Sequence record: NC_000866.4
Length of the DNA: 64,000 nucleotides
Direction: 5' to 3' (one strand)
Source: Escherichia phage T4
In this document: piece by piece, positions 12-23,561 of the stretch
Layout of the letters: every line of letters begins with the position of its first letter
How positions within the stretch are numbered: position 1 is the stretch's first letter
Notes under the pieces: generated by a model
Database searches by the model: none
Told to the model about the DNA's origin: nothing
What the model saw: only the letters and a program-made list of their open reading frames with translations
Position numbers and translations under genes: made by a program

Positions 12-2189
12 TTAGGCCGCAAGGGCCTTCATAGTTTTAGCGATTTGGGAAACTTCATCATCACTTAAAGAGTTGCGATAACCGATGAAGTCGGAAACAA
101 TACGGAATTTCTTGGTAAACTCAGCAACCATTTTATCACTGTTTTTTGAAGCATTATTTGATAATACATCAAAAAGATTAGTTACTGTCCAAATGTCATG
201 ACCGATGGTATCTTTTCCACCATTAAAATATACACCCTGTAATGAACTAACCATATTAGCGAGTCGTGTATATTCTTCAGAAACTTCATCTATACTGAAG
301 TACTTCATCATAAAATCTAACTCAGGATACTTGATAATTTTATCAATATATCGTTTAGCTGAACTTGAATAACCTACATACTTATCATAATCTACATCAT
401 CAAAAGCATCTACATATAAATCACGCAAAGCTTCAAAAATACATTGGCACTGACCGAGTTCTTTTACCTTTTTCTGTAAAAGCGGACGAATAACATAAAA
501 TTCATTAATGCCAATAAGATTAGCCATACGAATCAAAATATTCATAGATGGATGACAAAGAGATGTAGTACCATCCATAGAGAAAATATCAGAACGATGC
601 ATATACGCTACATAACCAGTAATTTCATCTGCTTCTGATGTGAGGCGTAAATAATTCCTCTTTTCCCAGCGCCCGTCTTTAATTTCAAACTTAAACGCTG
701 TAGCAGCTTTAGGACGAGGAGCTTTACTTTTAACTACCTTTGGAATATAACTTTTTACTAAAGCTTCAATTTCTGACAAATAATGAATGTTAACTTCATC
801 ACTTTCAAACATCGCCATAATATCAGGAAGCAAATCAATCTGCGATTCTACTTCTGGATTAATAAACAGAAGACGTTCGTTATGATGAATATTCAAAGTG
901 TTATTAAATTCACTATCATCTAACGCACGTGCTAATCCACGGACAATATTAACACGATTTTTAATATTATCAATAACGATATTAATTTTTGTTGTATTAA
1001 TACCAAACAGACGATAACTTGATGCAACGGCTGAAGTTTCATGACTTTGCTTAATGCGCTTCAGTCGAGGGTCAAGATTTACTTCATACACAACTCCCGC
1101 GTTGCATAACTTACTGTCAGGTTCAAACATGCTCTGCATCTTTTTATATGACAGATTTTTAGTCGTGAATTTGACTGAATTACTAATCATATAATCTCGA
1201 GCAGAATACCCCATCTTCATCAATTCACGATATGTGTGACGAGGAGATGTAGATTCTTTAAATCGTTTTACATCTTCATTAAATGCTTTCTCACTGAGTT
1301 CTTTAACTCGTTCAATAATATTTTTACGAGTGCGATCATCCAGTGAAAGAGCCTCGCGAGATGGAGCAATATCAAGTGAACCCATTGGAAACTTAATGTA
1401 ATTCACTTCATTGCGAATGCTTAGCCAGTTACGGTCTCTAATAACACCATCGATAGGATAAACAATACCACCGTAGATAGCATATAATCCACCACGATCA
1501 GGCCAGTATCTTTCTGGATTTACACCGTAATAGTCATCAAAATCCGGAAAATAATCAATTTCGCGGTCAAGACCATTAATGATAGCCAAATCTTTGAACG
1601 GTCGCATGATATAAGAAACTTCATAAGCAAAGTTTCTAAAGTCTTTTTCTTCAACTGGAACTACGATTTCAATACCAGTTTTATCATCTGGACCCATTTC
1701 TTTTACGAATGTAGGTTTAATCTGTGGACCATCACCATCCATGTAAGCTACATAACCACGAATTTCACCTTTATGATACGAAGTAATACTAAACGTATCA
1801 GTATAACTAAACGGAGATTTAGAACCTAAACCAAATCCGCCAATAAAGTCATTAGATTCAGCTTTAGATGAACTGAAGTATGAATTATACAACCCAGGAG
1901 AATTATCATCACCTTGAATATCAAAATCACTCATACCCGGACCAAAATCTCGACAAACAAATCGTGGGTCTAAACGTCCAGGAACTTGTATGATAAATTT
2001 TTCAGGATTTCCATTAAGTGCATGAGCATCAATCATGTTAGTAATCAATTCACGGACTACTGCGCGAATCTTGTTTGTATACAAATCAGATGACAGAATT
2101 TTAAATACTTTAGGAGATGCTGTGATGCTAAATGCTTTTGATTTAGAACCATTACCAAGAATTGTTTCTTTTTCAGTGGTGATAATCAT
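12..2189 (-). CDS. rIIA: rIIA protein, 725 aa, GHKL-type ATPase-like N-terminal region
   Basis: 725-aa [11 protein letters not shown]..., ATG at 2187-2189; length and sequence match T4-type rIIA; motif [10 protein letters not shown]. Confidence 0.93.
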
Positions 2190-16845: not shown

Positions 16846-17634
<789 letters not shown>

Positions 17635-17737
17635 TCATTTATTGCAGCAAAAATGAATTATACAATTCTTCATCATATGTATTTGATAGTAATACTAACA
17701 CGTTTTGCGATAAATATTAATTTAAAGGAGGATATAT

Positions 17738-17938
17738 ATGGTACAAAAATTAATGGCACTTGTTAATGCCATAAAAGGTAATAAGAAACGTATAGCTTTT
17801 ACTATTTCTACTATGGTAGGAATTTTACTCTGGAACTTTATTTTATCACCTGTTGCAATTGCACATGGTGTTAATATTCCAGTAGTTACTCTTGATACAT
17901 TCGTAGATTTAGCATTTGCTTTAGTTGGGTTAATTTAA
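17738..17938 (+). CDS. hypothetical small hydrophobic protein, 66 aa, opposite strand to all neighbours
   Basis: ORF-track plus-strand ORF in a 309-nt intergenic gap; strong SD (AAAGGAGG) 6-8 nt before the ATG; late-promoter-like GATAAATA about 20 nt upstream; two hydrophobic segments. Confidence 0.45.
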   Translation: MVQKLMALVNAIKGNKKRIAFTISTMVGILLWNFILSPVAIAHGVNIPVVTLDTFVDLAFALVGLI

Positions 17939-18963
17939 ATCTTAGCATATTTAGATAGCCGCATTTTAGCCATTAACCCCTGGGCAATATTATTTTTCAT
18001 ATATTCCATAATTTGTTCAGGGGTTGCACCTTCCTTTCTAATCATATCATTAACATCTTTTGATTTCCAGGGAGATTTATCCCAAAACATAACCCTTTCT
18101 CCTGCATCAACTAATTTAGTCATTCGTTTAATAGTGTCAGGGTGACGAGGTTCATTATCTAAGACCCACACACGTCTATCTTTAAATGGAACAACTTCTA
18201 GGTCTAATTGACCGCCCGTAATAGCTATACCATTTTCAATAAAAAGTGAATCTATAGGTCCTTCTAGAACATATACATCACCATCTTTAACTCGTTCGAC
18301 TCCATAGATTTTTGTTGCCTCAGGATAAGCTTCGATGGTGATATATTTTTGAGGAGCATCTTTCTTTAATGCACGTCCTTGAAAAGACTCAGCTTTTCCA
18401 TTAGCATTATAAATTGGAATAACAAGACGAGGCTCAGAAATTTCCTTTTTGTATGTTCCCGGTGCTATGCTATTAACTAATTTAGGCCATTCGGTTGTAA
18501 ACCAAAGATATTTCCATTTATCCTTTGGAATACAACGAGCTTTTACGTATTTTATAATTGGATGGTCTTCCGCCAGTTTATCTAATCTAACACATGACGG
18601 AAGAGATTTAATTATTTTCTTCTCGGGTTGTTTAGGAAGTTCTTTAGGTTTTTCTATTGGACGACTTTTACCTTTTTCTTTTCTTATTTCAAAGATATAC
18701 TCACGATATAAATCGGGTTCAAACTCCTTTAAATATATTCCGATTGGTGCATGATAGTTACAGTTATAACAATGAATATTTCCTTCATTATTATCACCAT
18801 AATACCATCCACGGGCTTTATTCTGGTCGGTTTTTGAATCTCCACAAACAGGGCATCTAAACCGTAATTTAAAAGTTGAACTATTATTTACTTGTGTGAA
18901 TTTAGGTAAATGAGCTAATGCACGGTATGCAAACTCATTATCAATCCAAGGTATTGATGACAT
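17935..18963 (-). CDS. 61: DNA primase gp61
   Basis: 342-aa ORF with an N-terminal zinc-ribbon (CPVCG...CYNC) and TOPRIM-like region. Confidence 0.93.
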   Translation of the reverse strand: MSSIPWIDNEFAYRALAHLPKFTQVNNSSTFKLRFRCPVCGDSKTDQNKARGWYYGDNNEGNIHCYNCNYHAPIGIYLKEFEPDLYREYIFEIRKEKGKSRPIEKPKELPKQPEKKIIKSLPSCVRLDKLAEDHPIIKYVKARCIPKDKWKYLWFTTEWPKLVNSIAPGTYKKEISEPRLVIPIYNANGKAESFQGRALKKDAPQKYITIEAYPEATKIYGVERVKDGDVYVLEGPIDSLFIENGIAITGGQLDLEVVPFKDRRVWVLDNEPRHPDTIKRMTKLVDAGERVMFWDKSPWKSKDVNDMIRKEGATPEQIMEYMKNNIAQGLMAKMRLSKYAKI

Positions 18964-19131: not shown

Positions 19132-19758
19132 TTAACCTCTATTCATAAAAGCATTAAAAATTTGGTCATCAATAGAAACATTTACTTTAGGCTGTTTTTC
19201 AGATGGCAATTCATATCCACATATTACAATTTTATGATCAATATCAAAATACACAGAAGCAATATGATTAATGATATTTTCAGTAAAGTCTAAATCAACA
19301 TCAATATCTTTTTGACCAAAGCCCAAAGGATAAATAATGCGAGTAATTCGATTATCTTTAACAAAGATTCCACCGACATACTCTGTGCTGCGTTTAAAGT
19401 CTACACGCCGACGAAATGAAAAATATTCAGGCTCTTTATGAGCTCGGCTCATAGGACACAACGAATAACTAGAATAAGAGATGTCAAATCCTACGCCTTC
19501 AATATGAACTAAATTGTCATGATTAAACCAATTATAATCATATGCCAAGTCCATTAGATTGTCATATGTGAAAAGCACCGGATTAACATCATTGGTCACA
19601 AGCATATAATTAGCAACTGCTATAATTTCATTATTTTTAACGAATACAAACCGTGATTGATGCGAATGGCCTGGACCTGCGTTTTCACGATTAATGATAT
19701 AACACTGGGCACCTTTATATTTGTACGTGTCTTTACACTTGTGCATTTGATAAAGCAT
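19132..19758 (-). CDS. hypothetical protein at the 61.2 position (possibly the anti-DarT factor AdfA)
   Basis: 208-aa ORF; assignment by synteny and from memory only. Confidence 0.55.
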   Translation of the reverse strand: MLYQMHKCKDTYKYKGAQCYIINRENAGPGHSHQSRFVFVKNNEIIAVANYMLVTNDVNPVLFTYDNLMDLAYDYNWFNHDNLVHIEGVGFDISYSSYSLCPMSRAHKEPEYFSFRRRVDFKRSTEYVGGIFVKDNRITRIIYPLGFGQKDIDVDLDFTENIINHIASVYFDIDHKIVICGYELPSEKQPKVNVSIDDQIFNAFMNRG

Positions 19759-20051
19759 TATTCACCTACCACTTCAGCGATGATATTTTTGTTATTAAAG
19801 TTTTTATCGCAATACAGAACATAATTATACTGCATTACACCACCAGACTTAAGCTGTTTTTGCACTTCAGCTTTCATTTCAGGACGATCACGCTTAACGA
19901 TATTCATAATATCTGCTTCAATTTGAGTTTCAACCTCAGTCTGATCCGCAGTCATAGACCATTCGCACAAATCTTTATCATAACCTGCCATAGCAGGCTG
20001 AGCAGCACAAGAAGCTAAAGCAAAAATTGTAGCAAAGATGAATTTTTTCAT
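19758..20051 (-). CDS. predicted lipoprotein
   Basis: 97-aa ORF with signal peptide and lipobox (MKKFIFATIFALASCAAQ...). Confidence 0.65.
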   Translation of the reverse strand: MKKFIFATIFALASCAAQPAMAGYDKDLCEWSMTADQTEVETQIEADIMNIVKRDRPEMKAEVQKQLKSGGVMQYNYVLYCDKNFNNKNIIAEVVGE

Positions 20052-22048: not shown

Positions 22049-22411
22049 TTAAAAGAATTTAAATTTTTTCTTTGACCTTTTATTAAATGCATCTTGCAGT
22101 TGCATTGTAATACATTTTTCTACATGAGGAGCTAACTCAGCTTTTCTTTCTTGGTCAAGAACAGCAAAGTCCATTACAACCTTTCCATCAACCCAATCCA
22201 GTTTAGTTACATACACTATATGCGTAGAACCATCTTCTAGTTTAATGACAATCTCCTGGATAACATTTTCCATAGCAGATTTAATTATCTTAAGAGACTC
22301 ATTAAAAAGACGTTCTTTTCTTTCTTCTTCCCCCTCCGAAGAGGGGGATTCATCGATAATTTCTAGATCTAAATCTAAATCATCTTTATTCATTAAATTC
22401 TTCCATATCAC
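22049..22411 (-). CDS. 40: gp40-like protein
   Basis: 120-aa ORF between 41 and uvsX; synteny. Confidence 0.65.
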   Translation of the reverse strand: MIWKNLMNKDDLDLDLEIIDESPSSEGEEERKERLFNESLKIIKSAMENVIQEIVIKLEDGSTHIVYVTKLDWVDGKVVMDFAVLDQERKAELAPHVEKCITMQLQDAFNKRSKKKFKFF

Positions 22412-23561
22412 TTAGCTGTTCGAGGTCAGTTTCTAAATCAGCAGCTGATTTACTTTTACTTTCTGGAGATTTAAATTTTTCAACCTTTGAGTTAATCAAT
22501 TCATCAACTTCAGCTTCAACAATTTCATTACTATCAATAGCACCTAACTGATAAGCACGTTTAATAGCATCTCGGAATGGTTGATGCTTAAATAAAGGAC
22601 CCCAGAATGTAGTGCAGTTGGTATCTTTTGCACGCCAAGATTTTTCTTCGCGAATCATCTCGCCAGTTTCTTCGTCAAGAAATTCACGAGCATACCAGCC
22701 ATTTTTAGGTTTTACCACGAATCCTAATTCTAGAGCCATATCTAACAATCCAGAATAAGGATCGATACCACCGTCAAATTTAACATCAATAAAGAATTTA
22801 CTTTTTTCTTTAACGGTACGAGATTTTTCTACATTTAGAACAAATTGATACCCCTGAAGATCAGAACCATCTTTAATCTGGCGTTTACCGATAATGAATA
22901 CGGTATCAGCCGAATACATCGGTCCAGTACCACCTCCCATAACTGTTTTACTAAACATTTCTTGTGTTTCGTATGTATGGTTAATAGCAATACATGGAAT
23001 ATTTTTAGTACTAAAATAGGGAGTTACGATACGAAATAAGCTTTTCATTGTTTTAGCTCTAGTCATATCACTAACAACTTTTTCATTTAAAGCATCTTCA
23101 GTTTCTTTCTTAGAAGCTAAGTTACCAAGTGAATCGATAAAAACGACTACCTTTTCGCCGCGTTCAATTGCATCCAATTGATTAACCATGTCAATACGTA
23201 ATTGCTCAAGTGATTGAACCGGAGTATGAATTACTCGTTCTGGATCGACTCCCATAGACCGCAAATAAGCAGGAGTAATACCAAATTCACTATCATAAAA
23301 CAAACATACTGCATCAGGATATTGACGCATGTAAGATGACACCATTGTTAATCCAAAGTTTGATTTAAATGATTTTGATGGACCTGCCAAAATTAACAGA
23401 CCAGATTGCATACCACCAGTAATTTCACCAGAAAGTGCAATATTCATCATAGGAATTTTTGTTCGAACTACATCTTTTTCATTAAAGAATTTAGATGCTG
23501 TTAATTCTGCAGTCAATTTAGAAGTAGAAGCTTTAATCAAACGAGATTTTAAATCAGACAT
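22386..23561 (-). CDS. uvsX: UvsX recombinase (RecA-like)
   Basis: 391-aa ORF, Walker A GPSKSFKS. Confidence 0.94.
   Translation of the reverse strand: MSDLKSRLIKASTSKLTAELTASKFFNEKDVVRTKIPMMNIALSGEITGGMQSGLLILAGPSKSFKSNFGLTMVSSYMRQYPDAVCLFYDSEFGITPAYLRSMGVDPERVIHTPVQSLEQLRIDMVNQLDAIERGEKVVVFIDSLGNLASKKETEDALNEKVVSDMTRAKTMKSLFRIVTPYFSTKNIPCIAINHTYETQEMFSKTVMGGGTGPMYSADTVFIIGKRQIKDGSDLQGYQFVLNVEKSRTVKEKSKFFIDVKFDGGIDPYSGLLDMALELGFVVKPKNGWYAREFLDEETGEMIREEKSWRAKDTNCTTFWGPLFKHQPFRDAIKRAYQLGAIDSNEIVEAEVDELINSKVEKFKSPESKSKSAADLETDLEQLSDMEEFNE

Follow-up and report, generated by a model that had tools for sequence, protein, structure and literature searches.

dam.1, a conserved small gene between dam and gene 61 of bacteriophage T4, is predicted to encode a late inner-membrane microprotein

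Does the short gap between dam and gene 61 of bacteriophage T4 hold a protein-coding gene and, if so, what might its product do for the phage? We analyzed a stretch of 64,000 nucleotides of the T4 genome (the window), in which a plus-strand open reading frame (ORF) lies between these two minus-strand genes. The original prediction for this locus described a small membrane-protein ORF with a near-consensus ribosome binding site and suggested that it could be a late-expressed lysis or exclusion factor, or an unannotated gene. We address the existence of the gene, its range and regulatory motifs, the predicted topology of its product, and the roles that such a product could have.

Layout and annotation of the dam-61 gap

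The ORF occupies positions 17738-17938 on the plus strand, starts with ATG, and encodes 66 amino acids followed by a stop codon (protein MVQKLMALVNAIKGNKKRIAFTISTMVGILLWNFILSPVAIAHGVNIPVVTLDTFVDLAFALVGLI). Its divergent upstream neighbor is dam, the gene for DNA adenine methyltransferase (16846-17625, minus strand), and its convergent downstream neighbor is gene 61, the gene for DNA primase (17935-18963, minus strand). The gap between these genes spans 17626-17934; its length of 309 nt agrees with the original prediction, as do the coordinates of the ORF and its 66 codons. The stop codon of the ORF had been said to overlap that of the primase gene, and we find the two TAA stops tail to tail with 4 nt shared (TTAA at 17935-17938, on both strands). 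A Shine-Dalgarno sequence (SD), AAAGGAGG, had been placed close to the ATG, and it is present on the plus strand at 17724-17731, with GGAGG at 17727-17731 and a spacer of 6 nt to the ATG. The late-promoter-like element expected about 20 nt upstream is the plus-strand octamer GATAAATA at 17709-17716, which ends 21 nt 5' of the ATG. The claim that this is the only plus-strand ORF in an intergenic gap needs qualification: it is the sole one with an SD, but a crude check placed other plus-strand ORFs of at least 40 amino acids outside large minus-strand ORFs as well. A 601-nt region around the ORF matches three T4 records (K03113, X01416, and KJ477686) at 100% identity, and T4T and further T4 genomes at 99.8%.

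We noted two potential RNA structures at this locus. An inverted repeat pairs GGGTTAAT at 17927-17934 (the end of dam.1, codons G-L-I) with ATTAACCC at 17972-17979 (the 3' end of gene 61, codons G-L-M). The arms are 37 nt apart with a T-rich run after them, and similar pairing is partly kept in RB69 and in lineage L018; the pairing may be coincidental, or it may form a weak structure where the two genes converge. On the minus strand, a terminator-like hairpin at 17753-17772 (ATGGCATT-AACA-AGTGCCAT) is followed by TAATTTTTGT, a T-run that extends to about 17743. This hairpin lies ~165 nt 3' of gene 61, within dam.1 codons 6-12, and could attenuate read-through from gene 61 into dam. It is kept in Tequatrovirus and is not found in RB69, VR25, or more distant relatives. 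We considered it as a cause of ORF conservation and rejected it, as the hairpin is confined to Tequatrovirus and the protein has a much broader range. Scanned for Rfam families and tRNAs, the dam-61 gap gave nothing above noise.

The ORF already has a name in public records. T4T (HM137666) annotates it as 'dam.1, hypothetical protein' (ADJ39749.1), which is 98.5% identical to the window protein and differs at one residue (T25 in the window, A25 in T4T), and the UniRef name is 'Uncharacterized protein dam.1'. The counterpart in RB69 is RB69ORF029w (NP_861719.1), 54% identical to T4 dam.1 and alike in position and strand. A full-length match was obtained to PHROG 2024 ('unknown function'; E=4.6e-31, residues 2-66 against profile positions 1-65 of 65), and tblastn found the ORF encoded in 691 phage records, mostly as 'hypothetical protein'. 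None of the T4T, RB69, and PHROG entries differs substantively from the window ORF; they provide a name and no mechanism. K03113 and MT984581 list only dam and 61 at the locus, and the Thr25 protein of the T4 window is without an NCBI accession, whereas the Ala25 form has one. Because the exact Thr25 protein lacks an accession and these two records list only the flanking genes, our searches suggest that the reference T4 annotation (NC_000866) omits dam.1. The description of the ORF as an unannotated gene was therefore half right: older and classic T4 records appear to be without it, but it is annotated as dam.1 in T4T, as RB69ORF029w, in PHROG 2024, and in hundreds of genomes. dam.1 is an already catalogued hypothetical gene, re-discovered here rather than discovered.

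The residue that distinguishes these records is encoded by codon 25 (17810-17812), which is ACT (Thr) in the window, K03113, X01416, and KJ477686. T4T and the ten further Tequatrovirus alleles that we compared have Ala there, and the codon is GCT in a T4 mutant record, OL964745.1. Since a resequenced T4 strain also carries Thr25, it appears to be a polymorphism among laboratory strains and not an error of early sequencing.

T4 is the best-studied lytic phage, yet literature searches for dam.1 or 61.1 in bacteriophage T4 found no paper on the gene, and none on the dam.1 ORF turned up in a search on ribosome profiling and small proteins of phage T4. The HIDEN-SEQ and CRISPRi-ART papers contain no mention of the dam.1 locus; CRISPRi-ART took its target genes from NC_000866. 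A dRNA-seq data set of T4 transcription start sites has been published (bioRxiv 10.1101/2024.04.04.588121). dam.1 seems to be missing from the reference annotation behind transcriptomic, proteomic, and CRISPRi screens, and adding it would close a small gap in the catalogue.

Conservation and phylogenetic range of dam.1

We compared 11 Tequatrovirus alleles and found 25 variable sites, of which 9, 3, and 13 fall at codon positions 1, 2, and 3, respectively. The differences between alleles are mainly synonymous, and the amino acid changes are all conservative. dN/dS was 0.12-0.30 in nine of ten informative Tequatrovirus comparisons; the tenth gave 0.61 with only 3 differences. Amino acid identity to T4 dam.1 is 54% in Mosigvirus (RB69) and 48-52% in Gaprivervirus. 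A single-sequence, word-based search recovered close relatives only, and remote homologs needed profile searches. A profile search of 1.8 billion representative proteins yielded sixteen matches, nearly all of 57-70 amino acids, with the remote homologs at 21-29% identity. Members of the family share the motif KK-TM-WN[FY]..VP.AA.hG..LPP..LE, followed by a short hydrophobic tail, and all 13 aligned family sequences match PHROG 2024. Conservation of the ORF and its SD in T4-like genomes had been named as a check on the original prediction, and it is borne out: the ORF is present in at least eight Tevenvirinae genera, with a GGAG-type SD in 13 of 13 lineages. Because it is under purifying selection and its position is conserved across genera, dam.1 is a genuine protein-coding gene, conserved in Tevenvirinae.

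The position of the gene is conserved in detail. On the same strand and converging on the 3' end of gene 61, dam.1 is found in Tequatro-, Mosig-, Gapriver-, Dhaka-, Jiaoda-, Moon-, Gelderland-, and Kanagawavirus, and the same arrangement occurs in an Enterobacter phage and two metagenomic T4-like contigs. These two contigs hold two of the most distant matches (23-25% identity); on each, the homolog is a lone plus-strand gene among minus-strand genes by the primase region, and its stop overlaps that of the convergent gene by 4 nt. This overlap is present in 11 of the 12 lineages for which the neighbor is known. T4-like genomes have dam or gene 56 on one side of the ORF and gene 61 on the other; dam is absent from RB69, VR-type phages, and other relatives that have retained the small ORF. 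The equivalent position is without dam.1 in Krischvirus, Pseudotevenvirus RB43, Roth88, an Acinetobacter phage, and an Aeromonas phage.

A homolog of 70 amino acids is encoded on the chromosome of E. coli PSJ-12 (22303-22515), as the last gene of a prophage that truncates yegD. This prophage is partly decayed, with IS5 insertions and a tail-fibre pseudogene, and its dam.1 homolog is present in 25 of 5,426 complete E. coli genomes. A phage lysozyme gene in reverse orientation and a DUF2730 transmembrane/coiled-coil gene lie ~1.5 kb away from the homolog. The dam.1 family appears to be restricted to Tevenvirinae and this one prophage lineage.

Several variations on the locus were observed among the relatives. 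A second, diverged subfamily has 23% identity to T4 dam.1. In VR25 (Gaprivervirus), a copy of this subfamily (1701-1901) lies in tandem after the first and has its own SD, AGGTGGA; in VR20, the second-subfamily copy carries TGA at codon 2. In Dhakavirus JS98, a second-subfamily ORF (1926-2126, minus strand) is the sole copy and is unannotated. Many Tequatrovirus records contain a ~540 bp insertion between dam and dam.1 (for example phage Lutter, 1625-2185), which encodes a 186-aa minus-strand hypothetical protein and is absent from T4. Relatives with a third upstream context (lineages L008-L010, L023, and L024) carry AATAAATA in place of GATAAATA. Krischvirus KFS-EC has a 591-nt 'gap' after gene 61 with no dam.1-like ORF; an unannotated 187-aa same-strand ORF at 1944-2507 looks, by eye only, like an HNH/AP2-type homing endonuclease.

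One T4 record carries lesions in this region. Aligned to window positions 17600-17960, OL964745.1 ('Mutant T4 clone T4_7t1', viable) shows three small deletions: 3 nt at the start of dam, 4 nt in the spacer between the dam.1 SD and ATG, and a 2-nt frameshift at dam.1 codons 22-23. Another record, MZ375356.1, matches over an equally shortened length (590 nt). If the deletions in OL964745.1 are real and not assembly errors, dam and dam.1 are dispensable in the laboratory.

Expression signals and predicted topology

The octamer GATAAATA is the T4 late consensus, TATAAATA, with a G at the first (-13) position. Late-promoter-like octamers are present in 13 of 13 lineages, where they end 15-33 nt before the ATG; in the 12 lineages other than T4 they lie 23-41 nt before it. 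The upstream DNA is unalignable between most of these lineages, which are not independent of one another. The octamer reads GATAAATA in three lineages, AATAAATA in four, CATAAATA in three, and ATTAAATA in two, and one lineage has the perfect consensus TATAAATA. Ten of the 13 lineages depart from the consensus at -13, and two others do so at two positions. In each of the 13 T4-like lineages, (A)GGAG(G) starts 9-12 nt ahead of the ATG, and in several of them the entire divergent gap is ~30-40 nt, which leaves just enough room for the octamer and the SD. The phage Lutter record annotates the same octamer as a plus-strand promoter.

These motifs can be read against what is established for T4 late transcription. 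A perfect TATAAATA is found in 32 of 50 T4 late promoters; -13 is the most variable position, A is the variant seen there most often, and T4 does use variants (PMC2988020). Transcripts of the early and middle stages of T4 infection all have a polarity opposite to that of dam.1 (PMC2988020). Since its strand is unused by early and middle transcription, dam.1 would be expressed late, and the octamer and SD conserved in 13 lineages agree with the late-gene signature originally proposed; we infer late timing from these regulatory motifs. The dam.1 promoter may have low activity, because it deviates from the consensus at -13 and, in some lineages, elsewhere. The non-consensus first position, found in 12 of 13 lineages, may reflect selection for low transcription combined with strong translation.

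We also counted these words across the 64 kb of the window. AAGGAGG occurs once on both strands, as the dam.1 SD, against 4.25 occurrences expected from shuffles, and is thus depleted. The combined pattern ATAAATA-N(3-30)-GGAG-N(4-10)-ATG has two matches in the window versus 0.33 expected. The first is the dam.1 site. The second lies at 15609-15571 of the minus strand, and from the order of genes in T4 we read it as the promoter and start of the known late gene soc. Perfect copies of TATAAATA number three, all on the minus strand (59753, 45638, and 15610), and ATAAATA is rare (8 plus-strand and 5 minus-strand occurrences). Apart from functional sites, the window seems to avoid strong words of the late-promoter and SD kind. 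At the other end of the gene, the 460 nt downstream of the dam.1 stop in T4 contain no recognizable plus-strand terminator. In a distant homolog (L019), a strong hairpin with a T-run starts at the stop codon, which suggests a self-contained mRNA in that lineage.

We modeled the protein with AlphaFold2 (AF2) on the 13-sequence family alignment. The model has a mean pLDDT of 81 and places helices at residues 2-12, 16-42, and 52-65. The N-terminal helix (residues 2-12; 17741-17773, plus strand) is amphipathic, with a hydrophobic moment of 1.73, and is followed by the basic cluster KGNKKR at residues 13-18. The predicted transmembrane helix (residues 16-42; 17783-17863, plus strand; block pLDDT 79-87) contains a hydrophobic span of 24-27 residues, with crude Hessa-type insertion sums of -1 to +3 kcal/mol across the family. 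In the family alignment it carries a near-invariant W32-N33 pair and an invariant P38. After the span, most family members have an HG..LPP loop (His-Gly...Pro). The C-terminal helix (residues 52-65; 17891-17932, plus strand) is hydrophobic or amphipathic, and insertion sums for the C-terminal segment range from +5 to +13 kcal/mol across the family. Position D53 is D or E in 12 of 13 aligned sequences, and T4 has a second Asp, D57. Five K/R residues precede the transmembrane helix; none follow it, only the two Asp, and the protein ends in FVDLAFALVGLI.

The AF2 helices and the hydropathy both predict a small membrane protein, in agreement with the original prediction. The further claim of two hydrophobic segments holds in T4, where their Kyte-Doolittle (KD) 19-residue means are 1.87 and 1.86, but across the family only the first is of transmembrane grade. 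Because K/R residues lie before the span and none after it (the positive-inside rule), and given the hydropathy, the predicted topology is N-in/C-out. The C-terminal helix is probably periplasmic or at the membrane interface, and not a second span. At the family level, we rejected residues 46-66 as a second transmembrane span on the basis of the conserved acidic residues and the high insertion sums. In T4 itself a helical hairpin is possible, as the C-terminal segment is hydrophobic enough there.

Similarity searches tied the family to no protein of known function. Pfam, NCBIfam, and PADLOC searches of the family gave no informative match, and a Foldseek search of the AF2 model against the PDB gave nothing below E=8. 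The only PDB sequence-profile matches were M4 helices of nicotinic receptors, which we dismissed as a product of composition and not homology. When the family HMM was run against the 492 ORFs of at least 30 amino acids in the window, the self-match was the only one below E=0.04, and we found no paralog.

Possible roles and relation to known systems

We consider it moderately probable that dam.1, as a conserved Tevenvirinae gene, encodes a late, bitopic inner-membrane microprotein that modulates a larger membrane protein. Judging from the motifs, the gene would have a gp55-type promoter of its own, GATAAATA, weak and non-consensus, that directs its transcription late in infection, and the near-perfect SD would allow efficient translation of the message. 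The product would be a bitopic inner-membrane microprotein of 66 residues with its basic, amphipathic N-terminus toward the cytoplasm. A single transmembrane helix would carry the conserved Trp-Asn pair and Pro, and the ~24 C-terminal residues, on the periplasmic side, would form the His-Gly...Pro loop and a short acidic hydrophobic helix. Having no catalytic domain, such a protein would most likely act by binding and modulating a larger membrane protein, of the phage or of the host, in the late phase of assembly and lysis, with helix-helix and juxtamembrane contacts to its partner. By analogy with known microproteins, a modulator that binds a larger membrane protein would be the most likely mode of action, because the polar residues within the membrane and the periplasmic juxtamembrane motif are both conserved.

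Two alternatives dispense with the protein altogether. A late plus-strand transcript could run into gene 61, or the 61-dam message, and shut it down as an antisense RNA, leaving the ORF incidental. The convergent geometry with overlapping stops would suit such an RNA, as would the absence of a recognizable plus-strand terminator in T4 within the 460 nt, but we judge this very unlikely for a locus whose protein is conserved to ~23% identity with its motif, with low dN/dS and a universal strong SD and ATG. In addition, the strong terminator directly after the L019 stop limits read-through, and no Rfam match was found. We give almost no credence to a chance, unexpressed ORF in AT-rich intergenic DNA: although older T4 GenBank records and one recent one are without the annotation, and the searchable literature yielded no experimental detection, the comparative data (conservation, synteny, and motifs) effectively refute it.

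The other alternatives accept the protein and assign it a task. A lysis or exclusion role, as originally suggested, is speculation. As a lysis-timing accessory, the protein would tune the T holin, the RI/RIII antiholin, or the spanins, or act as a weak auxiliary holin or pinholin-like depolarizer. A late-type promoter ahead of a small predicted membrane protein fits this role, weak promoters would fit a product that is toxic in excess, and the E. coli prophage homolog lies near phage lysozyme and DUF2730 genes; two database records even name homologs 'holin' or 'putative holin', apparently as an automated guess. We nevertheless regard the role as improbable. The family has no holin match in Pfam, NCBIfam, or PHROG function (the best is GTA_holin_3TM, E=0.08, in 2 of 13 members), its hydrophobic C-terminus is without the charged tail typical of holins, no endolysin gene neighbors it in any T4-like genome examined, its profile has no similarity to RI or other window ORFs, and the T4 lysis genes t, e, rI, rIII, and pseT.3/pseT.2 already cover the known lysis functions. 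An exclusion or host-interaction factor of the 'moron' type, which would block other phages or colicins or counter a membrane-acting host defence, also seems rather unlikely to us. The yegD prophage ends with the 70-aa homolog, a position typical of lysogenic-conversion or exclusion genes; the tandem diverged duplication in Gaprivervirus and the premature stop in VR20 represent turnover that fits arms-race genes; and dam.1 lies near sp (61.3) in a hyperplastic region. However, late expression would come at the wrong time to exclude a superinfecting phage, and both imm and sp belong to the early genes. In addition, the family profile has no match in any other window ORF (sp, 19758-20051, at E=8) or in PADLOC, and strong conservation with fixed synteny across genera is unlike typical accessory morons.

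A bolder extension of the modulator reading, which we put forward tentatively and hold to be doubtful, is that dam.1 is the founding member of a Tevenvirinae-wide family of late inner-membrane microproteins that control an envelope event, with the promoter kept sub-consensus by selection. Candidate events could include holin triggering or lysis inhibition, membrane-bound prohead initiation, and resistance to a membrane-acting defence. Such a family has perhaps been invisible to T4 genetics and genome-wide screens owing to its omission from the reference annotation, as in CRISPRi-ART with its NC_000866 targets. If dam.1 modulates lysis or another membrane step, it would be an extra component in a textbook system. 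Beyond the database entry, our analysis adds the breadth of the family, the architecture of promoter and SD, the likely topology, a paralogous subfamily, and the prophage homologs, and a conserved late membrane microprotein is a well-defined, testable hypothesis.

Comparison with known systems places the gene and its predicted product in context. A parallel in regulatory architecture is T4 soc, a late gene among early genes that, on our reading of the second match, has a late octamer, a short leader with GGAG, and an ATG, like dam.1. soc uses the perfect TATAAATA on the minus strand, whereas dam.1 has GATAAATA on the plus strand; the two have no sequence relation, and the soc product is a soluble capsid decoration protein. 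T4 has its own holin (T), antiholins, spanins, Imm, and Sp. Imm and Sp are small envelope proteins of T-even phages, and sp lies 1.8 kb from dam.1 in the same cluster. Both are early genes encoded on the other strand, and Imm has two transmembrane segments; dam.1, in contrast, has a late-type promoter and lies on the strand unused in early and middle transcription. Holins (T4 T, classes I-III, and pinholins) resemble the predicted dam.1 product as small, late inner-membrane proteins of phages with at least one transmembrane helix, which for dam.1 is a prediction. Unlike them, the dam.1 product lacks a charged C-terminal tail and shows homology to no holin family, and its gene is not linked to an endolysin gene in T4-like genomes. 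The bacterial proteins MgrB and AcrZ are bitopic regulatory microproteins that resemble the predicted dam.1 product: they are ~50-70 amino acids long, lack an enzymatic domain, and combine a single transmembrane helix with short juxtamembrane segments that are conserved. This likeness is an analogy only, with no sequence relation expected, and it offers the model on which a modulator role for dam.1 may be pictured.
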